Virus record (IMG/VR): IMGVR_UViG_3300047445_000122 | DNA length: 64,000 bases | Source of the DNA: a virus | Lineage: Duplodnaviria; Heunggongvirae; Uroviricota; Caudoviricetes | Direction: 5' to 3' (one strand) | In this document: piece by piece, positions 2,761-59,097 of the stretch | How the letters are laid out: the number at the start of each line of letters is the position of its first letter | How positions within the stretch are numbered: position 1 is the first letter of the stretch | Translations under genes and position numbers: made by a program | Notes under the pieces: model-generated | Told to the model about the DNA's origin: nothing | The model's input: only the letters and a program-made list of their open reading frames with translations | The model's database searches: none

Positions 2761-3306
2761 TCATTGGTTGAACTCCAACTTGGTTTCATGTTCCAGGCAA
2801 TCATGGATGTTGGTCTCAGTGCACTTGGGCATGAGCTTGCTTTGTTCCAGCCTGAAGAAGCGCTCCAGGCGGCGGTCATAGCGGTAGACCTTCACACCAT
2901 GATCAAGCAGGTACTTGATGCCATCCCGGTCGCGGTAGTCATTCTCATACACGAAGCCAACCACGCCAGACAGTACCATGTCGGTTGCACATGGATAGCA
3001 AGCTGCGTGGGTACAGAACATGACGGAGCCTTCGGAAGACTCTGAGGACTTGCGCAGCTTGTTCAGGGCGTTGATCTCAGCATGGCGAACATCAGAGCGG
3101 GTCTTCAACCCACCATGACCATCGCACTCTTCGCAGACATTCGGTTCGCCGGGGAGGCGTCCATTCCAACCTTGGGCAACCGGAATGTCTCCGGTCTCGC
3201 CCTTGACGAGCAAAGCGCCCACACGCAGACGTTGAGCATGGGAGTTGGCAGCGTAGCAGGCCGCAGCGTTCAGGTGGGCAATTGCGTGGCGGGTCTTGAT
3301 GTTCAT
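2761..3306 (-). CDS. dCMP deaminase (cytidine/deoxycytidylate deaminase zinc-binding family)
   Basis: HAEINAL followed by CTHAACYPCA (HxE ... PCxxC zinc motif). Start reassigned to ATG 3306 (MNIKTRH), which has a perfect AAGGAAA SD; this creates an ATGA overlap with ORF 3303..3608. Confidence 0.8.
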   Translation of the reverse strand: MNIKTRHAIAHLNAAACYAANSHAQRLRVGALLVKGETGDIPVAQGWNGRLPGEPNVCEECDGHGGLKTRSDVRHAEINALNKLRKSSESSEGSVMFCTHAACYPCATDMVLSGVVGFVYENDYRDRDGIKYLLDHGVKVYRYDRRLERFFRLEQSKLMPKCTETNIHDCLEHETKLEFNQ

Positions 3307-3608
3307 GCGTTTCCTTTGTTGTCGTACCAGAAGGCATCGCCCTTCTTCAGTGGGTTGGGCGTGAGGAACCTGTCTTGGTGCCACTTCTGTCCATCATAGG
3401 TCCAGAAGATAGCAATCAGGGTACGGATACCGGGGATGACGATGTTGTATTGACCAGGTTCAGCAGGAGGGTCTTCAGCGCAGTCGCGTGGGCCGTTGCT
3501 TGGTGGGGCGGGTTCTTTCTTGCCAAAGATGGCATCCCAACCCTTTTGGTACATGGGAGTTGATGTGCGGGTGGCGATGCGGTCGCCAGTGATGTCGTTG
3601 TGACTCAT
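3303..3608 (-). CDS. hypothetical protein (101 aa)
   Basis: Complete ORF translationally coupled to the dCMP deaminase gene. A -10-like TATAAT (minus strand, 3641..3646) lies upstream. Confidence 0.45.
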   Translation of the reverse strand: MSHNDITGDRIATRTSTPMYQKGWDAIFGKKEPAPPSNGPRDCAEDPPAEPGQYNIVIPGIRTLIAIFWTYDGQKWHQDRFLTPNPLKKGDAFWYDNKGNA

Positions 3609-6838: not shown

Positions 6839-7306
6839 TTACATCAACCAGAGGAGAGGTTGAGCCTTGCCCATCAACTTCTCGTTGAAATCCTCATCCC
6901 AAGGGAACTTGCCCTTGTCGTCAGTCAGAACCATTTGAAGGTAGACAGGAGCCGATTCACCCTTGTTGTAGTAGTATTCCAGACCCTGAACAGCCCAGTC
7001 ATCGACTTGCTTGGTGGTCAGCTTCTTGAACACCACCGGGAACCTTCCAACGTTCAGGGAGGAGGAACCGTCAGTGAACTTGCGACCGGACTTGATCTCA
7101 TCCACAGCTTTGTGAATCAGGTAGTGACCGATTTCCTGACGGACACCCATGACGATGATTTCTGGGTGGTCAAGGGTATCTTTCAGACCGACAGTGTAGC
7201 AGAACGGTGGAGTCATGGCGTCAGGATCAGCGAAGACGCCCATCACAGCAAAGCCATAGTCTGGGTTCTTGATGTCACTCTTGATCTTTTGTTGGATGAT
7301 GTCCAT
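6839..7306 (-). CDS. DUF4262-like protein (155 aa)
   Basis: Size and the CYTVGL / HPEIIV pattern are reminiscent of the DUF4262 family. Start reassigned to ATG 7306 (AAAGGA SD). Low certainty. Confidence 0.3.
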   Translation of the reverse strand: MDIIQQKIKSDIKNPDYGFAVMGVFADPDAMTPPFCYTVGLKDTLDHPEIIVMGVRQEIGHYLIHKAVDEIKSGRKFTDGSSSLNVGRFPVVFKKLTTKQVDDWAVQGLEYYYNKGESAPVYLQMVLTDDKGKFPWDEDFNEKLMGKAQPLLWLM

Positions 7307-7375
7307 TCTGTAGTTCCTTTCAGTTTGATCTCGCGGTATTGCTCGACCTGAAAAGATTATACTTGGTAACTTGAT

Positions 7376-7424
7376 AAAAGAAAAGCCCCTGAGACGAATC
7401 TCAGGGGCTTTTTCGTTACTTCGT
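7376..7424. terminator. bidirectional rho-independent terminator
   Basis: AAAAGCCCCTGAGA-cgaa-TCTCAGGGGCTTTTT. Confidence 0.7.
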
Positions 7425-7712
7425 GGCTCTGTTGTACGTATCCCACGATTCCTTGTGGCGTTCATACTCACGCACTACGTCCCGGAACCAGGCGGTCATC
7501 TCATTCACAGGGAAGCGACTGGCTTGACCCTCGTTGTACTGGATCCCCGTTCCCGGCGATTCCCAGACCCGCTTGTGGTACTTGAACTTGAAGCCAAAAA
7601 TCTTGACTTCCTTCTGAACATACAAGCGGACAACAGCCTTGGAGTATTCAGCAACCGTCCAGCGACATTGATAGTCACCCAGACGGCCTTTGATCAACAT
7701 GGAGTTGCGCAT
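7416..7712 (-). CDS. hypothetical protein (98 aa)
   Basis: Complete ORF, coupled to the upstream ACP-fusion gene, followed by the terminator at 7376..7424. Confidence 0.4.
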   Translation of the reverse strand: MRNSMLIKGRLGDYQCRWTVAEYSKAVVRLYVQKEVKIFGFKFKYHKRVWESPGTGIQYNEGQASRFPVNEMTAWFRDVVREYERHKESWDTYNRATK

Positions 7713-9070
7713 TACTTGGTGTTGTACAGTTCGCGGCCATAGGCCTGGCTGACATCACCCAGCACGATGTACTTACAGCAACGGCACTTGTCGAAGTTGT
7801 AGTCAGTCGGTACGGACACGATGTCGCGTGGATCGACCTTGACTTCAACCAGGCGGTCGCCGCCGCTGGAGCTGGAGAAGTGACGGACATAGCCCGGAGC
7901 ACAGATGTGCAGACCGTGGGAGCAAGTCACGTTGTCGCGGTCATCGACCTTGGAACGTGGCATCTCGACAGTCAGGCCTGGGTTGTTCTTCATCGTACCA
8001 GTGTACTTGTCCAGGTAGTTGTTGCGTACAACCTTCAGGGCGATGATGTCGCCGTCGCCGTCGATGCGGAGGCCAGTCTTGGTCACGAAGTTGAACAGGT
8101 TCTTGTTGACGCGGAAGGAATGGGATTCTTCCAGCTTCTCGAAGAAGCGGCTGAACTTCTCCAGACCCTTTTCATCGGAGTCTTCCAGGCAGCGCATCAT
8201 CACGCCAGCCAGTTCGGAGTCGATGCGCTTGCCATCGAACGTCACACCCTGGGCGGTCACGACCATCTTGCCACTGGACCAGCGCGACAGAGCACCAACC
8301 ATGTCGATCAGATCGTACAGCAGTTGCAGGTCTTTCTTGTAAATCTGGTTGTTCTGGACGTTGGCCACAATCGCGCTGATCTTGTCATAGTTCTTGTGGG
8401 TCTTGTCAATCTGCAGTGGAGTGCTGTCGCGCACCACAGTCAGAACTTGAGGCAGGACGATGGCCTGGAACGGCACCAGAACATCAGGCTCGGTGTCATC
8501 CGCAGCCAGGGAGTTGGTAGGCAGTTCATCGACCGCCTTCATGATGAACAGAACAGCATCCTTGACGGTCTTGATCTTCTCAACATCTTCATCTGGAATC
8601 TCGATGTCGAACTCATCTTCCAGAGCCATAGCCAGCTCAACGGTGTCCAGGGAATCAGCGCCCAGGTCATCGATGAAGTGGGATTCTGGGGATACATCAC
8701 CGGCATCAACGCCCAGTTGATCAATGATGACTTCGATGGTCTTGTTCAGGATGGTGGTGTTCAGCTCAGGCTCCGGGGCCGGAACGATCTTGGCTTCAGC
8801 CGGGATCGCCTTGGACTTGCGTGGCTTGGCTTCCTTCTTCGCCTTCGGTTTGCGCACACGCTTCGGCGCGGCTGCTTTCTTGGCCTTCTTGGTGGTCTTG
8901 GCCTCAACCTGTTCTTCGGTTGGCTTCGGTGCGTTCTCTGCTACAGCCCAGCGAGCCAGGGTGGAGCGGGAGATACCAACCTTGTCAGCCGCTTCCGACT
9001 TGCTCAGACCATTGGCCTGGTAGTTCTGGAAGCTGATAACTGCTTGGATTTGTTGACTCGTCAGAATCAT
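7712..9070 (-). CDS. multidomain protein: N-terminal HTH, Lys-rich linker, acyl-carrier-protein (ACP) domain, and a C-terminal 250-aa domain of unknown function
   Basis: Residues about 115..185 ([59 protein letters not shown]) match bacterial AcpP almost motif-for-motif, including the DSL phosphopantetheine-attachment serine. N-terminal [20 protein letters not shown] helix-turn-helix. Strong SD before ATG 9070. Confidence 0.7.
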
Positions 9071-12429: not shown

Positions 12430-12580
12430 GATATTGGGTCGCCACACAGTGGGTCAACCCAATCAATATTCCAACCGTAAGTGCTTGATTCTACAGGTTG
12501 AGAAAATTGACTTTATTGGAATTGCTGTTGTGAATTCCGAGACAAGAAAAAGCCCCTGGTGGGAACCAGGGGCATGTTGT
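12430..12580. repeat. intergenic repeat element, copy B
   Basis: CCGTAAGTGCTTGATTCTACAGG ... TTGACTT ... GGAATT-GCTGTTGTG-AATTCC hairpin ... AAAAAGCCCCTGG..CCAGGGGC terminator ... ATGTTGTTA. Confidence 0.65.
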
Positions 12581-12858
12581 TACTTGAGAATCGCCAGACA
12601 GCTTTCTCGGTCTTTGTTCAGAGAGTCAGTCCACTGAACCACTGCCATGTCGCGGATCGAAGTGACCAGGGCTTCGACATCCCAATTGGTCAGATCGGCT
12701 TCGATGAACATGACCTTGCCATCATCCAGACGCCAGTTACACACCAGGTCAACCTTCAGTGTCTTCGGGCCGTTGTCTACATCGACACGCATCCAAGACA
12801 CGAACCAACCGGCGTTGATGGTGGCCAGGAGCTCATCAACAGTATACAGACGGCGCAT
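12580..12858 (-). CDS. hypothetical protein (92 aa)
   Basis: Complete ORF with an ATGA overlap to the TAXI gene. Followed by repeat-element copy B with its terminator. Confidence 0.4.
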   Translation of the reverse strand: MRRLYTVDELLATINAGWFVSWMRVDVDNGPKTLKVDLVCNWRLDDGKVMFIEADLTNWDVEALVTSIRDMAVVQWTDSLNKDRESCLAILK

Positions 12859-13841
12859 TACTTCTTGGCCTTAGCTGCTGGGCCGTTGAAGCGCGGCAGA
12901 TCGGATACCGTGGCGTCAACGTTCTTGATCTCATTCCAGCCCGGTTCATAGCGGCCTTCCTTCAGTTCCTCCAGGTTGGAGGCGATGAGTTGCTTCAGGC
13001 GGGCAACTTCTTGAGCCTTCTGGCCAGTGAACGGGCGGGTTACCAGGACGTTTTGGATGGCCAGGGCTGGGATGTTGTAGGCGCCAATGTTCTTGTAGTT
13101 GAACGGCTTGACGTTGTATGGACTACCAATCGGAGCATCGAACGGGATCAGGGTCAGACCGCTGTTCGCATCCAGAGCCTTGATCGAGGCAACCGGCCAA
13201 CCGGCGACAGTGAAGGCAGCTGCGACTTTGCCGGTGCGCACCAGTTCAAATGCAGCTTCATCAGTCTTCACCGAAGTGAAGCGCATGCCGTAGCCCAGTT
13301 GCTTGTTCAGAACAGCGCCCAGGAGCTCAGCACTGCCCACGGCGGCGACGTTCTGGCCGCGCAGGGAGCTGAAGGAGGTCATGCGGACGTTCTTCAGGTC
13401 GCCGTCCATGAAGCCATACTTCTTCTCGCCACGAACGTTGTAGCCGTTGGCCAGGGCCACAATGTGCAGGTAGTTGTTGTTCAGCGGCATGACCACTTGC
13501 AGGGAGGCGATGTTGTCGTCACCTTGACCCATGGTCTTCAGGGTATCGACTTGAGCCAGGCCCAGATCAGCTTGCTTCTCGCTCAGATCAGTCAGGTTGT
13601 CAAGACCGCCCTTGGTGGTCTTTTCGCAGATCGCCATGTTGTTGCCGACAACCTTCTTGATGTCGCGGTACATGGCTGCGTAGCCTTTGTTGGAAGCGCC
13701 GGTGGCGATGGTCAGACCGTCGCAATCAGCTGCTGGAGCGCCGTCCATCTTGGCTGCGTGAGCCGGGAGGGACATAGTTACAGCAGCCAAGATGCCGAGA
13801 GCGCTGATGCTGGACAGGGCGATGAGTTTGGACAGTTTCAC
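12858..13841 (-). CDS. TAXI-family TRAP-transporter periplasmic solute-binding protein (secreted)
   Basis: Signal peptide MKLSKLIALSSISALGILAAVTMSLPAHA. Segments GLTIATGASNKGYAAMY, KGGLDNLTDLSEKQADLGLAQVD, YLHIVALANGY and GKVAAAFTVAGWP align to the TAXI consensus remembered from bacterial proteins. Likely GTG start with AAGGAG SD. Confidence 0.7.
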   Translation of the reverse strand: MKLSKLIALSSISALGILAAVTMSLPAHAAKMDGAPAADCDGLTIATGASNKGYAAMYRDIKKVVGNNMAICEKTTKGGLDNLTDLSEKQADLGLAQVDTLKTMGQGDDNIASLQVVMPLNNNYLHIVALANGYNVRGEKKYGFMDGDLKNVRMTSFSSLRGQNVAAVGSAELLGAVLNKQLGYGMRFTSVKTDEAAFELVRTGKVAAAFTVAGWPVASIKALDANSGLTLIPFDAPIGSPYNVKPFNYKNIGAYNIPALAIQNVLVTRPFTGQKAQEVARLKQLIASNLEELKEGRYEPGWNEIKNVDATVSDLPRFNGPAAKAKK

Positions 13842-13853
13842 GGTATAGCTCCT

Positions 13854-14002
13854 TACAGGTTGAAGTTGGTTGCAGGCGGATGATCCTGCGGAGTTGTTAC
13901 AACAGGGGTCTCGCCTTCCGGCGTTGCTGGCTTGGAGGTGAACACATAGAGCGCACCCAGGACAGCCAGCATCAACACGATACCAATGACGGTGAGTTTC
14001 AT
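13854..14002 (-). CDS. small single-pass membrane protein (49 aa), not in the ORF track
   Basis: ATG 14002 with AAGGA 7 nt upstream. Sequence MKLTVIGIVLMLAVLGALYVFTSK followed by a Pro/Thr-rich tail. Sits 12 nt upstream of the TAXI gene. Confidence 0.35.
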
Positions 14003-14011
14003 GATGATTCC

Positions 14012-14782
14012 TTATGCGACAGAGAGGGCCGGAGCCTTCAGCTTGTTGATGTCCAGGATGCTACCCAGGACAGGGGCGCCAGCAGCGTCATATTGGACTT
14101 GACGGGTCTGCTCGGTCTGGGTGATGTTCTTCTTCACGAAGTCATCATCCACCAGTGCCATACGCAGGTTGGCCAGGGCTGTGGAGTTGGCCTTGTCGAT
14201 AGCATCGAAGGCTGTTTTCTCACGGTAGATCGCCATGAAGTCCTTGCCCTTGTTGAACGACTTGCCCAGTTCAGCATCAGCCACAGCCATCTCATAGATC
14301 GCTTCTGCCTTCTCCACGACGGCCATGAAGTTCTGGGTTTCCGCCTTGGCTTGCTTGAACATGTCGGTACGATACACAAACAACTGTTCATAACCAGCCA
14401 GCTGTTCGTTGATCTCAGCGCTGTCTTCAGGGTAGCGCTTGTTGAAGTTCATGGCCTTGCGCTTGAACTCTGCCAGAGCTGCAGCTTGCTGGTGCAGGAT
14501 ATCGCGCTGCTCAGCCAGATCGTCTGAACGCTCCTTCGCACGTTGGTGAAGGGTCTCGACCGGGGCGCGGCTGATCACAACCTTCATGGCCTGGAACTTC
14601 AGCTGCGCCATCTTCTCGGTGAAGGCTGGCGTCAGTGCCATCACCAGACCGCCAATCACAGCCGCCGCAACCAGACCCACGAGACCGGTGATGGCCAGGA
14701 AGATGATTGGCGCTACGAACAGACCCGCAGCTAGCATCACGCCAACGCCCAGGTACTTCTTGAACTTCTCACGTTTGTCCAC
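14012..14782 (-). CDS. membrane-anchored coiled-coil protein (2 N-terminal TM helices; PspA/TelA-like?)
   Basis: Hydrophobic stretch at residues 10..55, then a long predicted coiled coil. The conserved promoter lies upstream (14822..14873). Confidence 0.45.
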   Translation of the reverse strand: MDKREKFKKYLGVGVMLAAGLFVAPIIFLAITGLVGLVAAAVIGGLVMALTPAFTEKMAQLKFQAMKVVISRAPVETLHQRAKERSDDLAEQRDILHQQAAALAEFKRKAMNFNKRYPEDSAEINEQLAGYEQLFVYRTDMFKQAKAETQNFMAVVEKAEAIYEMAVADAELGKSFNKGKDFMAIYREKTAFDAIDKANSTALANLRMALVDDDFVKKNITQTEQTRQVQYDAAGAPVLGSILDINKLKAPALSVA

Positions 14783-14821: not shown

Positions 14822-14873
14822 ATTATAGACCAGTTGATTTCGCAAAGTAAAGTGATATTGAGAAAATAAAAAT
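14822..14873 (-). promoter_or_regulatory. conserved phage promoter
   Basis: Minus strand reads TTTTTATTTTC..TCACTTTACTTT..CTGGTCTATAAT, 40 nt upstream of ATG 14782. Confidence 0.5.
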
Positions 14874-14899
14874 GCCCCGGATTTCTCCGGGGCTTTTCT
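14870..14899. terminator. rho-independent terminator
   Basis: AAAAATGCCCCGGA-tttc-TCCGGGGCTTTTCTT. Confidence 0.65.
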
Positions 14900-20647: not shown

Positions 20648-21724
20648 TTACTCCATAATGTTGAATTTGCGGAACGGCGACCAGGTCACGGCGCTCAGGA
20701 GGTCGCCTTGGAGGCGGCGCGTTACGCGGTGTTGGTAGATCACACCCTTCTTCGACAGGATATATCCATACACCAGAGCAGCGTATTCATACATCAGGTC
20801 GCCGTAACCGACAGCATAGCGATCAAAGATGTCTTCGATCTGGTTCCAGTGTTTGCCCCTCTCAGCTTCCAGGATTTCAGTGGTCTGGGTGATCATGGAA
20901 CCGTATTGAGCAATCAGCTCGCTGAAGAAGTGTTCCCACACCAGGTGACCGCCAACTGGACCAACCAGAGCAACATCATTCTCATGGAAGTTCTGTTTCT
21001 CCTCCAGGACAGCATCGAACTGGTCAATGAAGTCGCTGTAGACGTGGGCATTGGTGACGTGCCAGCGGTAGGAACCCAGCTTCACAGTCGGGTGGATCTT
21101 CTTCACCTCATTGTACATCAGCTCGTGGATGAAACTGAACTCGAATGGGTTGATCGAGCCAGTACCAAACAACAGGTCGCCAGAGCGTTGGATACACTTG
21201 GTGTGGAACTCACCATTCTCCACATAGAAGTGGAGCTCACGATTGCATGGGATGTCTTTTGGTACATGACCTTCACCATACACAGCTTCGATGGCTTCCA
21301 GGTTGTCGATGGTTGGGTCAGCAATCGTGACGAAGGAGCGGCGGGTGTTGATACCGTCATTGCGGAATTGATCAACAGCAGTCTGGAACTGGCTGTAACG
21401 ATGGAGGCGAGGGCCGTATGCGCCGTGCCAGGTAACTCCATCATCGCTGTAGTTCTTTGCGCGGGGCAGGAAGAAGTCCAGGTATGGGGTCACTGCGTTG
21501 GCTCCAGCCATGACCCAGAAGGTCTCAGCGATCAGCTGGAAGATGTTGGATTTGCGTCCGTGGAGGTGTAGGTGGCGGGAGCGGGGATTTTTGAACTCCA
21601 GCGTCGTGTCGTACATCGCCAGAGCGTACCCATTGCGGGTGTCTTGTTTGATACCTTCCTTTTGAAGGGCTTGGAAGGCTCGGTGGATTGTGTGTGAGAC
21701 GGTGTTGCCTCGGATAGTTCTCAT
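20648..21724 (-). CDS. ThyA-superfamily enzyme (thymidylate synthase or dUMP/dCMP hydroxymethylase) with about 90-aa C-terminal extension
   Basis: ThyA landmarks in order: RNGYA, ETFWVM, YGP, NTRRSFVT, catalytic PCN, QRSGDLLFG...N, AHVYS. The sequence continues a further 90 aa beyond the canonical fold. Confidence 0.75.
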   Translation of the reverse strand: MRTIRGNTVSHTIHRAFQALQKEGIKQDTRNGYALAMYDTTLEFKNPRSRHLHLHGRKSNIFQLIAETFWVMAGANAVTPYLDFFLPRAKNYSDDGVTWHGAYGPRLHRYSQFQTAVDQFRNDGINTRRSFVTIADPTIDNLEAIEAVYGEGHVPKDIPCNRELHFYVENGEFHTKCIQRSGDLLFGTGSINPFEFSFIHELMYNEVKKIHPTVKLGSYRWHVTNAHVYSDFIDQFDAVLEEKQNFHENDVALVGPVGGHLVWEHFFSELIAQYGSMITQTTEILEAERGKHWNQIEDIFDRYAVGYGDLMYEYAALVYGYILSKKGVIYQHRVTRRLQGDLLSAVTWSPFRKFNIME

Positions 21725-53934: not shown

Positions 53935-56900
53935 ATGTCACTTCAAAAAACCGACCTCAATGTCGCCCCGTTCTATGATGATTACGATGAGTCCAAAGGA
54001 TTCCATCGTGTGCTGTTCCGCCCAACCAAGTCCGTTCAGGCCCGTGAACTGACTCAGGCTCAAACCATCCTCCAAGAGCAAATCAACCGCTTCGGTCGTC
54101 ACTTCTTCCAAGAAGGCTCTGTTGTCGTTCCTGGTGGCATCAACGCCATCCCTGCCAAGGACACCATCGCAGTATCCCTGGGTGGCAACATTGATCCAAA
54201 CGTCCTGACCCTCAACAAAGACAAGCTGTACATTGTGTCCACCTCCTCTGGTGTGGAAGCCCACATGGTCAAGTTTGTTCCTGCTGCTAATGGCGACCCA
54301 ACTGCCTTCGCACTCGACTACCGCAAGACCGCAACTGACGGCGTGACTCGCACATTCCAAGCTGGAGAGACCTGCAACTTGGTGATCCGCGACGACAGCG
54401 GCGATACCATCGTCATCAACATGGTGGTGAACTCTGTCCAGAAGGGCACGTATGTTGCTGTTCTGCCTGGTGTGTACTTCGTGCGTGGCCATATGGTGCG
54501 TTGCGAGTCCCAAGACATCGTCGCCACACCATTCCGCAACGATCAGAACGTGCATGTGGGCTTCAAGATCAATGAGTCCATCATCAGCGAGACCCAAGAC
54601 GCCTCCCTGTTGTCGAACGCCCTGGGCGCTCCCAACTACAAGGCTCCGGGCGCTGCTCGCCTGAAGATCGAACTGACCCTGGCGTCCTACATTGGCGACT
54701 ACAACGACAACTCCTTCGTGGAGATTGTGACGTTTGCCAACGGTGAGCTGCAAAACAAGGTTGTCTCGACTGACTACAGCTACCTGATGAACAACATCGC
54801 GCAGCGTCAGTATGAGACCAACGGCAACTTCACTGTCGCGCCGATCCCGCTGAACATCTATGACCACATGCGGAATGAAGACTTCAAAGACGGTCTGTAC
54901 ACCCCTGCTCTGGGCGGCGACGCAACCAAGCTGGTGTATCGTCTGGGTCGTGGTATTGCCTACACCAACGGCTTCCGTTCTGAAATCCAGAACTACTACG
55001 ACATTGTAGCAGACAAGGCCATCGATACCAACACCCTGCGCAACGCAGTGTTGCCAACCTCCTTCGGCTCCTACTTCCTGTGTACGACTGCGACGGCTGT
55101 ATCTCTGCCACCACTCGACCTGAAGAAGCGTGTGAACCTGTTGGACGGCTCCAACGCTGTGATCGGTACTTGCCTGGTGCGTTCCGTGAAGTACAATGGC
55201 TATGACGCCATCATCGCCGGTAACACCATCCGCCTGTATGTGATGGACGTGCGGTTCAACACTGGCAAGAGCCTGGCTGACTTGGCTTCTGTGAAGTATC
55301 AAGACTCATCCAACAACTTCTCCGCTCCTGTGTATGGCAAGCGTGTGTACGACAGCACTGTGGACTCCATGCTCTTCAAGCTGCCGTATGATGCTGTGAA
55401 GTCTCTCTCGACCCAATCAGGCATCAACACCTCATACAGCGTCGTGCGTTCCTACGACATCACCCTGAACGGCTCTGGTGTTGGCTCTGTGTCTCTCCCA
55501 GCGAATGAGTATTTCGTGGCTCTGAACGGCTTCGATTATGCTGCTGCTCTGACCGGTTCCGGGACTCCAGGCACTGCGTTCGGTACAGACAAGCTCGCCC
55601 TCGGCGGTACGGGTGGGAATAAGACACTGACAGTGAATGTTGGTGCGTCGTACAGCGGTCAGGTCGTTCGCGTCATCGCGCCAGTCTATAAGGCCGTTAC
55701 GGGTCACAAGACGAAGACCCTCACCAGCCGTACCCAAACCATCGCCTTCGCAAACCAGAGCTCAGCAATCCTCGACCGTTGTGATGTGTACAAGCTCGAC
55801 AGCGTGATCTTGGTGAACCCTGATCTGACTGAAGTTGACGTGTCCAATCAATTCGGTATCAACTCAGGCAGCAAGCCGAACTGGTATGAGAACGGGAGCC
55901 TGTACAAGCTCGACAGCACGAAGGTGACTGGCAACTACCGTGTGACCTATGAGTATTTCAACCACTCCAGCGGCGACTACTTCACTGTGGACTCGTATGG
56001 TGGTATGCTGCGTGAAGACATCCCGCTGACGTCTGACACATTTGACAAGACCGTCGTGAGCTTGGCCGACTGTCTGGACTTCCGCCCTCTGCGCGATGCC
56101 TCGACAGCTACTGGCTCTGTGATTGGTGACTTCACCTCCGCTTCTTGGCTGGGTGACCTCATTGACCCGAACGACAGCGTCAACTATGACGTCACGTACT
56201 ACACCAACCGCATGGACTTGGTGTTTGCGGCTCCTGATGGCAGCTTCAGTGCTATGCGTGGTATCCCTGGCGACAACCCAAGCCCACCTCCTGTTCCGAA
56301 CGATTGTATGGCTTTGTACCAAGTGTACATTCCGGCCTACACTGTGGACGTGTCTAAGGTGCGTCTGTTCTCCTTCGACAACAAGCGCTACACGATGCGC
56401 GACATTGGCAAGCTGGAAGGTCGCATCGGCAACCTGGAATACTACACCTCTCTGAACCTCTTGGAGAACAAGGTGGAGCGTACCCAGGTGTTGGATCAGA
56501 ACGGTCTGAACCGTTTCAAGAACGGCTTCAGCGCCGACAACTTCCTGAGCACGACTCTGGGCGATGTGACTGATCCTCTGTGGGCTGCGTCCTATGACTT
56601 GAAGAACGGTCTGTTGCTGGGTTCCTACAAGGAAAGCCCTGCCGACATGATCTACAAGTCCGGTACCAATCACAAAATCGGCCGTTCTGCTGTGATGGAC
56701 TTCACGACCTCCGTTGCGATCAAACAGCCTCTGGCCACGCAAACTATCAACGTCAACCCATATGCTGTGTATACCTGGTCTGGCTCTGTGGAACTGTTCC
56801 CGGCGTCTGACTTCTGGAAAGACACTGTGTACTTGCCACCGATCACCCGCTCAGCTAATGGCCGTGTGACTTCCTCTGGCAATTCGTCTGGTCCAAGCGC

Positions 56901-59097
56901 TTCTGCGATCCAGGACTACAACGATCAGTATCTGTACCTCAAGGCGACTCCTGAGACTATGCAGAAAATCTGGGGCAGCGACTCCTCGATTCAAACCCCT
57001 GGCGCTCTGTTGACTTGGCAAACGCAATCTGGTACAGTGGTGACGATTCCTAACACCACCATCCCTGGTTCAAGTGTTGGCGGTCTCCCGGTTCCGACCT
57101 GGGCCATCACACCATACACCTTGGCAGACGTACCTGGCTTCACTCCCGGCACCACACTGGCTGGCTTCCCGCTGCCTCCTGCTGGTATCCCGATCTGGTC
57201 TCCATCCGCACCTACACAGGGCAACTCTGTACGTTGGGGCGTGACTGGTAGCCATGTGGAAACGACTGTCACCAATCAGTACTTCGATGACTTGATCGCA
57301 ACCGCAGTGATCCCATGGATGCGTAGTATCCAAATCACAGCCCGCCTCAAAGGCTTCCGCCCATTCACCAAGTTGTTTGCATTCTTCAACGGTATCAGTG
57401 TTGACGCTTACATCCAGCAGACGAAACCGGCGTTGGGAACCCTGGGTGCGAACATTGTGGTTGATGATACTGGTGCAGCTGAAGCAGTCTTCACGATCCC
57501 AAGCGATGTCAACATGCGCTTCCCTGTAGGCGATGCGACTCTGCGGTTCACTGATGACCCTGTGAACGGCGCGACCAACGCTCAATCCTTCACCTCTGGC
57601 GAGACTGTGTTCAAGTCCGGTGGTACTCTGGAAACCCGCCAGCAGACAACCGTGACCACTGTCACTCAAACCGTTGTGGAAGACTGGGGCTGGGTATCTC
57701 CTCCGCGAGACCCTGTTGCTCAAACCTTCTATGTGTCTGACTCTGGTGGTATCTGGGTTCCGAAGATTGACGTTGCATTCTCCACGAAGGCCAAGAAGCT
57801 GCCGATCACTCTGCAAGTGCGTTCTGTGACGGCTGGTCTCCCAACCAACGTTGTCGCTGCTGGCGGTCAAGTTATTCTGGACCCGTCCCAAGTGAATGTG
57901 TCTGCTGACGGCTCCGTGATGACCTCGTTCGTGTTTGATGACCCGATCTACCTGGCTGGCAAGACTGAATACGCCATCGTGCTCCTGGCCGACACCCAAG
58001 AGTACAACGTGTTCATCGCTACCATGGGTCAACGTGTGATTGGCAAGAACTTGAATGTGGCGGAGCAGCCTAACATCGGCGTGTTCCTGACCTCATCCAA
58101 CGCTTCAACCTGGTCTCCCGATCAACTGAGCGATCTGACCTTTGCTGTTCACAAGTGCGTGTTCGACACCAACACGACGACTCAAGTTGTCTGGGAGTGC
58201 TTCCGCCCTATGGCCCAGATCACAACTCTGCATCCGATCACTACCACTTCCGGTAGCAACATTGTGAAGTTGAATGTGCGTTCCCACTCTCTGAAGGCGG
58301 GTGACACGTTCCCGATCTACGTTGCTGAGGACGGTGCTGGTATCCCATCTACAGAGTTCATCGGCACGAAAACAGTTTTGTCCTCCGGTCTTGACTGGGT
58401 GACTTTCGCTGTAACAACCAATGCCAATGCATCAACTAACGTTGGTGGTGTGGTCAGCTTGACGGCGAACTATCCTGTGACTGAGTTCCGTCCTGATATC
58501 ATCCAGAACACTCTGCCAGGTACCACAGTTGCTTGGGAATATCAATATGTGTCTCAAGCCAGCCGCGCAACCTCTGCTTGGACGTTGTTCACGAACACAA
58601 ACGAAACCAATGGTCTTCCTTCTGAAGGCGTCATCCGCCAAGATGGTGACTTTAAGATTCGCGCCACGTTCAAGACGACTGATCCAAACCTGACCCCTCA
58701 GGTGAAGTTGAACGGTATGGGTGTCCAGCTGATTGGTCGCCGTCTCACAAACGACGCAACCAACCCAGCATTCAACTATGTGACGAAGGCTGTGAAGTTT
58801 GATAATGCCAACACCTCCATGCGCGCCTACATCGGTGTGAACCTCCCTGGTTCTACCAACATGAAAGCGTACTACAAGCTGTTGGCAACCGGCTCCGATG
58901 ATCTGAGCAAGGTAGCATGGACTGAGGTTCTTCCTCAGACCTCAATCATCAACCAACAGAAGGGCTTCGTTGAGTATGAGTACCGTGTGAACTCAACCAC
59001 CCCGTTCGTTGGCTACAAGATGATGATTTGCTTCTTTGGTCCAGACCCTGTCGATTGCCCAATCGTTCAGGACTTCCGCTCGATAGCGTTGGCATGA
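53935..59097 (+). CDS. very large virion structural protein (1720 aa)
   Basis: Uninterrupted 5.2-kb ORF in the tail/baseplate module immediately upstream of the gp13-like gene. Confidence 0.5.
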   Translation: MSLQKTDLNVAPFYDDYDESKGFHRVLFRPTKSVQARELTQAQTILQEQINRFGRHFFQEGSVVVPGGINAIPAKDTIAVSLGGNIDPNVLTLNKDKLYIVSTSSGVEAHMVKFVPAANGDPTAFALDYRKTATDGVTRTFQAGETCNLVIRDDSGDTIVINMVVNSVQKGTYVAVLPGVYFVRGHMVRCESQDIVATPFRNDQNVHVGFKINESIISETQDASLLSNALGAPNYKAPGAARLKIELTLASYIGDYNDNSFVEIVTFANGELQNKVVSTDYSYLMNNIAQRQYETNGNFTVAPIPLNIYDHMRNEDFKDGLYTPALGGDATKLVYRLGRGIAYTNGFRSEIQNYYDIVADKAIDTNTLRNAVLPTSFGSYFLCTTATAVSLPPLDLKKRVNLLDGSNAVIGTCLVRSVKYNGYDAIIAGNTIRLYVMDVRFNTGKSLADLASVKYQDSSNNFSAPVYGKRVYDSTVDSMLFKLPYDAVKSLSTQSGINTSYSVVRSYDITLNGSGVGSVSLPANEYFVALNGFDYAAALTGSGTPGTAFGTDKLALGGTGGNKTLTVNVGASYSGQVVRVIAPVYKAVTGHKTKTLTSRTQTIAFANQSSAILDRCDVYKLDSVILVNPDLTEVDVSNQFGINSGSKPNWYENGSLYKLDSTKVTGNYRVTYEYFNHSSGDYFTVDSYGGMLREDIPLTSDTFDKTVVSLADCLDFRPLRDASTATGSVIGDFTSASWLGDLIDPNDSVNYDVTYYTNRMDLVFAAPDGSFSAMRGIPGDNPSPPPVPNDCMALYQVYIPAYTVDVSKVRLFSFDNKRYTMRDIGKLEGRIGNLEYYTSLNLLENKVERTQVLDQNGLNRFKNGFSADNFLSTTLGDVTDPLWAASYDLKNGLLLGSYKESPADMIYKSGTNHKIGRSAVMDFTTSVAIKQPLATQTINVNPYAVYTWSGSVELFPASDFWKDTVYLPPITRSANGRVTSSGNSSGPSASAIQDYNDQYLYLKATPETMQKIWGSDSSIQTPGALLTWQTQSGTVVTIPNTTIPGSSVGGLPVPTWAITPYTLADVPGFTPGTTLAGFPLPPAGIPIWSPSAPTQGNSVRWGVTGSHVETTVTNQYFDDLIATAVIPWMRSIQITARLKGFRPFTKLFAFFNGISVDAYIQQTKPALGTLGANIVVDDTGAAEAVFTIPSDVNMRFPVGDATLRFTDDPVNGATNAQSFTSGETVFKSGGTLETRQQTTVTTVTQTVVEDWGWVSPPRDPVAQTFYVSDSGGIWVPKIDVAFSTKAKKLPITLQVRSVTAGLPTNVVAAGGQVILDPSQVNVSADGSVMTSFVFDDPIYLAGKTEYAIVLLADTQEYNVFIATMGQRVIGKNLNVAEQPNIGVFLTSSNASTWSPDQLSDLTFAVHKCVFDTNTTTQVVWECFRPMAQITTLHPITTTSGSNIVKLNVRSHSLKAGDTFPIYVAEDGAGIPSTEFIGTKTVLSSGLDWVTFAVTTNANASTNVGGVVSLTANYPVTEFRPDIIQNTLPGTTVAWEYQYVSQASRATSAWTLFTNTNETNGLPSEGVIRQDGDFKIRATFKTTDPNLTPQVKLNGMGVQLIGRRLTNDATNPAFNYVTKAVKFDNANTSMRAYIGVNLPGSTNMKAYYKLLATGSDDLSKVAWTEVLPQTSIINQQKGFVEYEYRVNSTTPFVGYKMMICFFGPDPVDCPIVQDFRSIALA

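Follow-up and report, generated by a model that had tools for sequence, protein, structure and literature searches.

Three adjacent genes of a T4-like phage (IMG/VR record IMGVR_UViG_3300047445_000122), called A, B and C here, may constitute a self-contained module of the inner membrane and periplasm rather than a fragment of a TRAP transporter, and may work as a tethered binding or sensing device. The function is predicted, and the reading is tentative, somewhat short of an even chance. The same three genes, in the same order, were found in about 50 loci residing in jumbo and large phages and in Burkholderiales chromosomes.

The phage context of the window, i.e. the whole 64,000-nt stretch of Caudoviricetes DNA analyzed, was confirmed by an rIIA-like gene, a gp41-type helicase, a UvsX-like gene and a baseplate wedge gene; a megablast search of GenBank phages with this region gave no match. 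A, B, C and a fourth ORF of 92 aa form one tightly coupled operon on the minus strand, with the following features:

14874..14893, minus strand: terminator-like hairpin of the upstream gene, the 5' boundary of the operon (GCCCCGGAGAAATCCGGGGC, then a T-run)
14822..14851, minus strand: sigma-70-type promoter-like site (TTTACT, 18 nt spacer, TATAAT; 10/12 matches, a consensus match only)
14012..14782, minus strand: gene A, predicted inner-membrane protein, 256 aa, GTG start
13853..14002, minus strand: gene B, predicted bitopic peptide, 49 aa
12858..13841, minus strand: gene C, predicted secreted TAXI-fold substrate-binding protein (SBP), 327 aa, GTG start
12580..12858, minus strand: orf92, 92 aa, translationally coupled to C through a TAATG overlap
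12552..12573, minus strand: intrinsic-terminator-like hairpin, end of the operon (GCCCCTGGTTCCCACCAGGGGC, then TTTTTCTTG)

The original prediction listed a TAXI protein, a 49-aa peptide with a single transmembrane (TM) segment and a 2-TM protein; all three ORFs are real and lie where they had been placed; they are encoded on the minus strand. An AAGGAG ribosome-binding site is found 7 nt upstream of the GTG start of A, gaps within A-B-C measure 9-11 nt, and ribosome-binding sites overlap the stop codon of the preceding gene. Predicted co-transcription of C with the single-TM peptide and the 2-TM helical protein, as proposed earlier, is supported by the promoter-like site, the flanking terminators and these tight junctions. 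The fourth ORF, missing from the earlier list, has neither Pfam nor PHROG matches and no homolog in any of the loci fetched. It was considered as a fourth member of the cassette and rejected, being absent from every other locus; orf92 is unique to this phage. Antisense ORFs recur over A and C; these are not genes, but shadow ORFs arising in GC-rich coding DNA.

As judged from sequence and structural model, gene C encodes a secreted TAXI-fold SBP of a divergent subfamily, with a predicted Sec signal peptide (MKLSK, a hydrophobic core, and AHA|AK, as read from the sequence) free of a lipobox Cys. C matches Pfam NMT1_3 above threshold (E=5.4e-12, 46.4 bits, gathering score 27), and falls below the cut-off of NCBIfam TIGR02122 TRAP_TAXI (46.1 vs. 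84.35 bits). The AlphaFold model has a pLDDT of 80.9, with residues 1-36 disordered, and the top seven Foldseek matches in the PDB are all TAXI SBPs (9ibo, 8s4j, 1us4, 4ddd, 8u79, 9ibp), with E values from 6e-14 to 3e-12 and TM scores of about 0.6. The assignment to periplasmic TAXI-family SBPs with a signal peptide was thus borne out by the Pfam profile and the nearest folds, but not at the TIGR02122 cut-off; the unrelated lipoproteins feared as top profile matches were not seen, TAXI proteins being on top. TAXI-TRAP SBPs (VcGluP/VC0430, 8S4J and 9IBO; TtGluBP, 1US4/1US5; the Ehrlichia 'immunogenic protein', 4DDD) share the type-II periplasmic binding fold with C and are its best matches in both structure and sequence, but identity is only 13-18%. 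In VcGluP the ligand is contacted by Y45, Q93 and E125, the latter binding its amine (PMC11574862). The Tyr and Gln equivalents are kept in C (Y54, Q97); in contrast, in the window and in all Massilia-type C proteins the equivalent of the amine-binding E125 is an Asn (N123), and that of H123 is N121. RP31-type C proteins retain H-x-E. A profile of C sequences including the RP31 type finds TAXI structures at E~1e-6, while a profile of the subfamily of the window no longer finds them by sequence. Cys40 and Cys72 are conserved in C.

Gene A matches phrog_27316 (E=1.6e-58), and has no Pfam match and no relative in a PDB sequence search. Clustered at 50%, the family has no fewer than 510 representatives, all unannotated and sitting mostly on large-phage contigs. 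Two hydrophobic helices at residues ~10-54, joined by a loop of 0-4 residues, form a TM hairpin rich in Gly and Ala, followed by an antiparallel helical bundle of ~200 residues and a small C-terminal beta element (model pLDDT 84.8). The hairpin is flanked by K/R-rich stretches on both sides, and in two A-family proteins an exported domain is fused on via a TM segment resembling a signal. Flank composition, loop length and fusions together predict an N-in/C-in topology with a cytoplasmic helical domain. The earlier description of A as a membrane coiled-coil protein was right, and the bundle, if cytoplasmic as predicted, could not contact the SBP directly. When 185k species genomes were scanned with a pattern of phage-type A, no relative turned up; bacterial A proteins have diverged too far to match it, and were retrieved via the SBP instead. 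A phage-only A profile picks up bacterial A proteins at E 1e-5 to 1e-9, and two branch profiles, A3 and A6, align in hhalign at 100% probability (E=1.4e-40); by these comparisons, the bacterial, phage and distant branches of A are homologous. One distant member has a weak match to Phage_holin_3_6 (E=0.005). Holins are small TM proteins (<150 aa), linked to an endolysin and expressed late; this identity was rejected, A being a 256-aa protein with a soluble domain of ~200 residues, preceded by an early-type promoter and with no endolysin adjacent. Homology to PspA/IM30/ESCRT-III was rejected as well, since A matches the PspA hairpin neither by profile nor by fold.

Gene B is a real gene: it matches phrog_37009 (E=1.5e-6), carries its own TAAGGAA ribosome-binding site, and nearly all of the ~50 related loci have a counterpart in its place, the TM segment and the tail being conserved. 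The peptide consists of an N-in TM helix, a Pro-rich periplasmic linker and a conserved C-terminus (...ATNFNL-COOH). In the window, B has no Cys and is therefore not a lipoprotein; among 40 B peptides, Cys occurs in just 6. A spanin pair was rejected because B lacks the lipobox Cys of an o-spanin, an outer-membrane lipoprotein, and because the helical domain of A is predicted to be cytoplasmic, unlike the periplasmic coiled coil of an i-spanin. Positive residues outnumber negative ones 104 to 6 in the N-terminal flanks of B, negative ones prevail in the tails (144 vs. 74); together with the loop length and the fusions of A, this bias indicates that the B tail would be the sole periplasm-exposed part of the A/B membrane pair. 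In the three TM helices of A and B no polar or charged position is conserved, a point against a path for solutes. A stator pair (MotA/ExbB/TolQ-MotB/ExbD/TolR or ZorAB) was rejected: the small subunit of such pairs has a conserved protonatable Asp in its single TM segment, and the TM helices of B contain no Asp or Glu. PADLOC profiles gave no significant match with A, B or C of either the window or Massilia, the sole match being a non-significant one to ZorA (E=0.012).

Phage carriers of the cassette include RP12, RP31, FLC, Motura and IMG/VR contigs, bacterial ones Massilia and others. In searches of phages, A and C match the same 7 records only, and are adjacent in them, with an ORF of 44-52 aa in between. 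When loci were retrieved by similarity to the SBP only (26 bacterial genomes and 10 viral contigs, 36 loci), an A-family gene was found directly upstream in 32, a B peptide in 35; the single bacterial exception to the linkage, L027, is a decayed locus. C was never found without B in the loci surveyed, and almost never without A. In Massilia chromosomes the same cassette resides amid unrelated flanks, and bacterial homologs are not in TRAP operons. Bacterial copies are not obviously located in prophages; two-component sensors often adjoin them, and some are co-oriented with a sensor kinase and a response regulator. The closest relatives of the phage, RSP15 and PhiW-14, lack the cassette, which is therefore accessory, and phage and bacterial sequences are interleaved in the tree of C, denoting frequent transfer. 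Literature searches retrieved no description of the cassette; the only prior mention is that of the SBP, in a 2017 gene list.

Permeases are missing from this picture. No multi-TM permease is encoded within several kb of the cassette in the window, in agreement with the original prediction that no TRAP permease lies nearby, and no DctQ or DctM domain was detected in the neighbor genes. None of the 36 loci retrieved via the SBP has a TRAP QM gene in its ±5 kb flanks, no other permease recurs in the flanks, and no multi-TM protein of DctQM size, recurrent or not, was found within ±5 kb in ~40 loci. An unlinked permease of the host is possible. An ABC SBP and permease flank the cassette in RP31, polyamine enzymes in Motura; both were looked for near the cassette of the window, and none was found.

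The sequence of B varies in two ways. The type of its TM segment goes with that of A, whereas its conserved extreme C-terminus goes with the type of C. Recombinant loci combining a phage-type A with a Massilia-type C (the window, L006, L044, L045) have B peptides with a phage-type TM segment and a ...FN[LF] tail, while loci with a phage-type A and an RP31-type C have B tails ending in ...[YF]K[LF]. In L052, one A gene accompanies two pairs each made up by a B peptide and an exported protein, and both B peptides begin their TM segment with MK[YF][KR]VI but have different tails. Wherever C has a Glu aligned to VcGluP E125, a K or R is found within the last four residues of B (11/11 loci); the B tails of these loci are otherwise diverged. 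An Asn at the same position of C pairs with the ...FN[LF] tail. These patterns suggest that B serves as an adaptor linking A with C.

In the architecture proposed for the tethered device, expressed from the early-type promoter, C would be exported by Sec to the periplasm, and the N-terminal TM helix of B would pack on the Gly/Ala-rich hairpin of A. The periplasmic linker of B, roughly 25 residues long, would end in a free C-terminus (...F-N-L-COOH in the window) docking on C, plausibly in the inter-domain cleft, which in TAXI proteins accommodates the ligand's carboxylate and amine. A would have almost no periplasmic exposure, its ~200-residue bundle serving as inside anchor or output. The complex would keep C at the inner membrane, and its cytoplasmic side would be coupled to whether C is tail-bound or ligand-bound.

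The A/B pair is not confined to SBPs. In other phages A and a tiny peptide are paired with an unrelated secreted beta-rich protein, and L049 and L052 add a small OMP-like beta-barrel ending in ...GFSF or ...GLSF. A broader reading, possible but doubtful, is that A/B is a widespread and unrecognized phage chassis, displaying swappable periplasmic proteins, either TAXI-like SBPs or the beta-rich protein with its outer-membrane barrel, through adaptors of ~45 aa whose tail is captured by the partner. In the SBP case the B tail, lying in the ligand cleft, would be a tethered pseudo-ligand displaceable by the real one.

Known systems resemble the cassette in part. In Bordetella pertussis TAXI-GltS a TAXI SBP is likewise genetically coupled to a membrane partner other than TRAP QM, and tethering of the SBP to the membrane, by lipidation, is read as functionally important (PMC12344293). 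GltS is however a multi-TM Na+/glutamate symporter, whereas A and B add up to three hydrophobic TM helices with no transporter fold, and tethering would be achieved by a separate peptide. SBP-dependent transducers follow a similar logic, a periplasmic binding protein or TM partner signaling to a protein with a TM hairpin and a long antiparallel cytoplasmic coiled coil. Chemoreceptors read periplasmic binding proteins, and Htr transducers read their partner via TM contacts. Unlike these, A has a much shorter bundle; no MCPsignal or HAMP domain was detected in the cassette, and no CheA/CheW or other output partner was identified.

An early envelope-protection or superinfection-exclusion device, in which the periplasmic protein, held at the inner membrane, stops the DNA or lysozyme of incoming phages, or hides a host transporter that serves as receptor, is compatible with the architecture proposed above, and differs in purpose alone. 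The role would be that of T4 Imm/Sp; these, like holin T and antiholin RI, are small early phage membrane or periplasmic proteins acting at the envelope. The accessory nature of the cassette, the early-type promoter amid early and replication genes with an rIIA-like neighbor, the exchange of the exported partner, as expected of an arms-race module, and the frequent transfer between phages and bacteria all suit this explanation. Yet neither sequence nor fold similarity to the T4 proteins was found, no endolysin is linked, PADLOC gave no match, the sequences point to no target, and the cassette also resides in bacterial chromosomes, in copies not obviously prophage-borne and often next to two-component sensors. 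This purpose is unlikely; the action of C as a decoy or receptor blocker, put forward earlier as an alternative, is possible.

Quite unlikely is that A and B oligomerize into a novel channel or transporter fed by C, making a complete phage-borne SBP-dependent uptake system, the beta-barrel supplying, in a variant, the outer-membrane step. The strict conservation of the three-part layout, the barrel of L049 and L052, the transport and polyamine genes next to the RP31 and Motura cassettes, and the precedent of a non-TRAP partner for a TAXI SBP (PMC12344293) speak for it. Against it stand the three hydrophobic, Gly/Ala-rich TM helices devoid of conserved polar or charged residues, the 0-4-residue periplasmic loop of A, which offers no docking surface to an SBP, the lack of ATPase and ion-coupling motifs, and the replacement of the exported partner by an unrelated beta-rich protein.

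Decidedly unlikely is the auxiliary metabolic gene (AMG) explanation, according to which C, an orphan TAXI SBP, captures organic or amino acids for a TAXI-TRAP (QM) permease of the host, with A and B as unrelated neighbors or mere helpers. Bacterial-type periplasmic SBPs are carried by other phages too; cyanophage PstS is reportedly a single gene matching the host Pst system, and is thought to use host PstCAB. The TAXI fold, the NMT1_3 match, the conserved Y54 and Q97, and the transporter genes adjoining the RP31 cassette agree with this explanation, as does the fact that TAXI SBPs can work with unlinked or non-TRAP partners, TAXI-GltS being the precedent (PMC12344293). Unlike PstS, however, C comes with two dedicated membrane partners from which it is hardly ever separated, bacterial orthologs lie in the same cassette, and none of the ~50 loci includes a QM gene. 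C also scores below the TIGR02122 cut-off, has lost the amine-binding Glu in the subfamily of the window, and is replaced on the A/B pair elsewhere by a non-SBP protein. The notion of a stray host-type transporter component in need of a host permease is weakened by the recurrence of the cassette and by flanks free of TRAP QM genes.

It is most improbable that the B C-terminus mimics the signal (YxF, WVF) by which unassembled outer-membrane proteins or MucE activate DegS/AlgW-type PDZ proteases, C capping or uncapping it and envelope stress being thereby tuned: B tails do end exactly at [FY]-[NK]-[LF]-COOH in ~40 loci, but other subgroups end in ...IVR, ...LRIP, ...LKID, ...FMSQ or ...EYSE, tails vary with the partner protein, not with a universal PDZ motif of the host, and no stress-response genes are linked.

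An SBP is usually interpreted as a component of an ABC, TRAP or TTT transporter, or as the input of a sensor kinase or chemoreceptor. In the ~50 loci of the cassette, a divergent TAXI branch comes tied to two uncharacterized membrane partners; the label 'TRAP transporter substrate-binding protein' for its genes, or their inclusion among the AMGs of viromes, is probably misleading. The mosaic combinations of A and C and the interleaved phage and host phylogeny provide a data set of natural domain swaps, and with its three genes and one peptide the system is small and directly testable. If B is an adaptor with its tail held by the SBP, the binding protein would be coupled to the membrane in a new manner, and the cassette would represent a new class of early envelope functions in phages. 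Should the broader chassis reading prove true, SBP coupling would follow a new principle, tethering by a peptide whose tail sits in the cleft, and large phages would have a new trans-membrane relay, exchanged with their hosts.

Genes A, B and C, encoding a membrane protein, a tiny TM peptide and a TAXI-type solute-binding protein (SBP), are flanked in the window by the following features:

14893..14874, minus strand: terminator of the gene preceding A, read from the DNA
14851..14822, minus strand: sigma-70-like promoter match (TTTACT, 18-nt spacer, TATAAT)
14782..14012, minus strand: gene A, 256 aa, GTG start
14002..13853, minus strand: gene B, 49 aa
13841..12858, minus strand: gene C, 327 aa
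12858..12580, minus strand: 92-aa ORF, its ATG overlapping the stop codon of C (TAATG), translationally coupled to the SBP
12573..12552, minus strand: strong hairpin and T-run 3' of the 92-aa ORF, read from the DNA

An AAGGAG ribosome-binding site precedes the GTG of A, and the stop codons of A and of B each lie within the TAAGGA(A/G) site of the gene that follows. The promoter match, terminators, ribosome-binding sites and stop/start overlap point to a single operon formed by A, B, C and the 92-aa ORF, the last having no Pfam or PHROG match and no homolog among the fetched loci. Long antisense ORFs lie on the plus strand over C (12990..13883, 297 aa) and A (13880..14527, 215 aa). Equivalent ORFs recur over the cassette in GC-rich related loci and group in one cluster; they are shadow ORFs, artefacts of codon bias, and were rejected as genes.

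The cassette is found next to a rIIA-like gene and a gp41-type helicase gene; UvsX-like, PhoH, RNA ligase and baseplate wedge genes reside elsewhere in the window. The best relatives of the helicase are from Ralstonia phage RSP15 (55%) and Delftia phage PhiW-14 (50%), and no close relative of the phage was found in GenBank. The window is thus from a T4-like myovirus, probably with a Burkholderiales host. A 452-aa protein adjoining the rIIA-like gene (7712..9070, minus strand), in the position of T4 rIIB, carries an N-terminal HTH_3 and a PP-binding (acyl-carrier-like) domain, a pairing unusual for a phage early gene. Also present are a DUF4262 protein (6839..7471, minus strand) and a 1720-aa protein (53935..59097, plus strand; phrog_358/877) with no assigned function in PHROG. 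Thymidylate-synthase-like (phrog_3676) and dCMP-deaminase-like genes were detected as well (regions 20648..21724 and 2761..3384, minus strand). The DNA of PhiW-14 contains putrescinyl-thymine, and in Achromobacter phage Motura homospermidine-synthase-like and glutathionylspermidine-synthase genes directly follow the cassette (L002, 7881..10706); a polyamine connection of the SBP is possible.

The TAXI fold assigned to C in the original prediction is borne out. C scores 46.4 bits against Pfam NMT1_3, above the gathering score of 27, and 46.1 bits against the NCBIfam TAXI model, far under its cut-off of 84.35. The seven best PDB matches of its AlphaFold model (pLDDT 80.9) are all TAXI proteins (VcGluP, TtGluBP, 4DDD, VCA0144; 13-18% identity), and the same structures are retrieved by sequence search with the C-family profile (E~1e-6). 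As read from the sequence, the N-terminus is a Sec signal peptide without lipobox. Residues C40 and C72, nearly invariant across the family alignment, would be compatible with a periplasmic disulfide. In VcGluP residues Y45, Q93 and E125 hold the amine of the ligand (PMC11574862); in an alignment with VcGluP, C has kept the first two as Tyr54 and Gln97, and Asn123 replaces the Glu. C belongs to a divergent TAXI branch and is unlikely to bind glutamate. In the NJ tree of C, phage sequences intermingle with bacterial ones, the RP31-type clade being purely viral; repeated phage-bacterium exchange is therefore indicated.

Searches by tblastn with A and with C retrieved an identical set of seven phage records, from Ralstonia jumbo phages RP12, RP31, FLC1-1B and FLC4-3B and from Motura. 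In all seven, A is immediately followed by an ORF of 44-52 aa, and this by C. C homologs at 52-64% identity are numerous, some of them encoded on Massilia and Telluria chromosomes. Massilia aquatica and Massilia sp. TSP1-1-2 carry an A(~262 aa)-B(55-66 aa)-C cassette within unrelated flanks, and the same cassette is present in a phage-like contig of 439 kb. Loci sampled by SBP similarity alone came from 10 IMG/VR contigs (30-365 kb) and 26 genomes, all Burkholderiales-like (Massilia, Duganella, Telluria, Rhodoferax, Paucibacter, Ideonella, Gallionella, Rhodocyclaceae). A same-strand A-family ORF lies directly upstream in 32 of the 36 loci, the B peptide in 35; the one bacterial locus that departs from this (L027) is rearranged, and its A is truncated. 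Neither a recurring multi-TM permease nor a protein of fused TAXI QM size was found in the flanks of these loci. Sensor kinases are the only recurrent neighbours. A distant bacterial subgroup has, in the orientation of the cassette, a histidine kinase (dCache/PAS) together with a response regulator (REC+GerE, LuxR-type), downstream of C (L032, L033, L037) or upstream of A (L035, L036); in Massilia, hybrid kinases are convergent with the cassette. In RP31 (L001, 7923..9448) genes for another SBP (SBP_bac_11, molybdate/sulfate type) and for an ABC permease (BPD_transp_1) come immediately after the cassette, with no ATPase seen within the stretch examined. Additional ORFs are inserted in three loci: two viral contigs (L040, L041; 4473..4760) have a ~95-aa secreted Gly/His/Ser-rich one after A and before B, and in L062 a 50-aa TM one separates B from C.

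A word-indexed profile search found 321 members of the A family, every one annotated 'hypothetical'; exhaustive HMMER search raised 510 representatives at 50% clustering, 360 with E <= 1e-10. Distant members are homologous (hhalign probability 100%, E=1.4e-40) and reside on phage-like contigs, where a tiny TM peptide comes next and then a secreted protein. The latter is a TAXI-like SBP in L053, L054, L056, L058, L061, L062 and L065, and an unrelated ~350-aa beta-rich protein, accompanied by a small OMP-like barrel, in L049, L051 and L052. In two clusters A is fused, via a signal-like TM segment, to this beta-rich domain. One 172-kb IMG/VR contig (L052, 3492..7203) encodes A, B1, a 353-aa beta-rich secreted protein, a 181-aa OMP-like barrel (...GIGLSF), B2 and a TAXI-like SBP; a single A chassis thus bears two pairs of adaptor peptide and exported cargo.

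In the A family K/R-rich stretches flank both sides of a hairpin with an inter-helix loop of 0-4 residues. The N-terminus of B peptides is basic, whereas their tail is acidic and rich in Pro, Gln and Ser. From these charges A is predicted to be N-in/C-in, which places its bundle in the cytoplasm, and B to be N-in/C-out, the ~25-residue B tail being the only predicted periplasmic polypeptide of the pair; the A fusions are consistent with this topology. The three TM helices of A and B lack conserved polar residues, and are Gly-, Ala- and Pro-rich (P25, G33, G36, P52).

Common to the B peptides are a TM helix and, after a linker that varies, a conserved extreme C-terminus. The window A is 42% identical to RP31 A and 19% to Massilia A, the window C 57% identical to Massilia C and 28% to RP31 C. 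B helices starting MK..IIG...LG.LYF.T accompany phage-type A, those starting MFWK.IRWGG bacterial-type A. Tails vary with the class of C, ending ...FN[LF] in Massilia-type, ...[YF]K[LF] in RP31-type and ...[IF]VR in distant bacterial loci. The two associations are decoupled in recombinant loci (the window, L006, L044, L045). Where C features H/F-x-E at the positions of VcGluP H123/E125, K or R is found among the last four B residues (11/11 loci) in otherwise diverged tails (YKL, LRIP, LKID, NNRN, GLGK, IKIQ, others); N-x-N at these positions is paired with ...FN[LF]. The converse of the E/(K or R) pairing is not strict (exceptions L061, L033-L036). Because the whole pattern follows clades, the co-variation is suggestive, not proof.

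In one of the readings given by the original prediction, C is an orphan that delivers to a TRAP permease of the host. This reading is disfavoured because the A-B-C linkage is strict in phages and bacteria alike and the exported partner is interchangeable. The evidence best supports a self-contained module of inner membrane and periplasm: B would bridge C to A, the cleft of C plausibly holding the free C-terminus of B, and the cytoplasmic bundle of A may act as anchor or output. Many TAXI SBPs are membrane-tethered lipoproteins (PMC11574862); tethering by a peptide would achieve this non-covalently. Conceptually, the TAXI-GltS system comes nearest (PMC12344293): there, the partner of a TAXI SBP is not a TRAP protein. 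The Motura record labels C 'transporter substrate-binding domain-containing protein'; no description of A, B or the cassette was found in the literature. The module may serve in sensing or relay or in exclusion, or it may be an uptake route of a new kind. The original observation is thus confirmed, and its interpretation holds in part. What was found goes beyond the SBP initially flagged: large phages and Burkholderiales share a conserved envelope cassette of three components, as yet uncharacterised.
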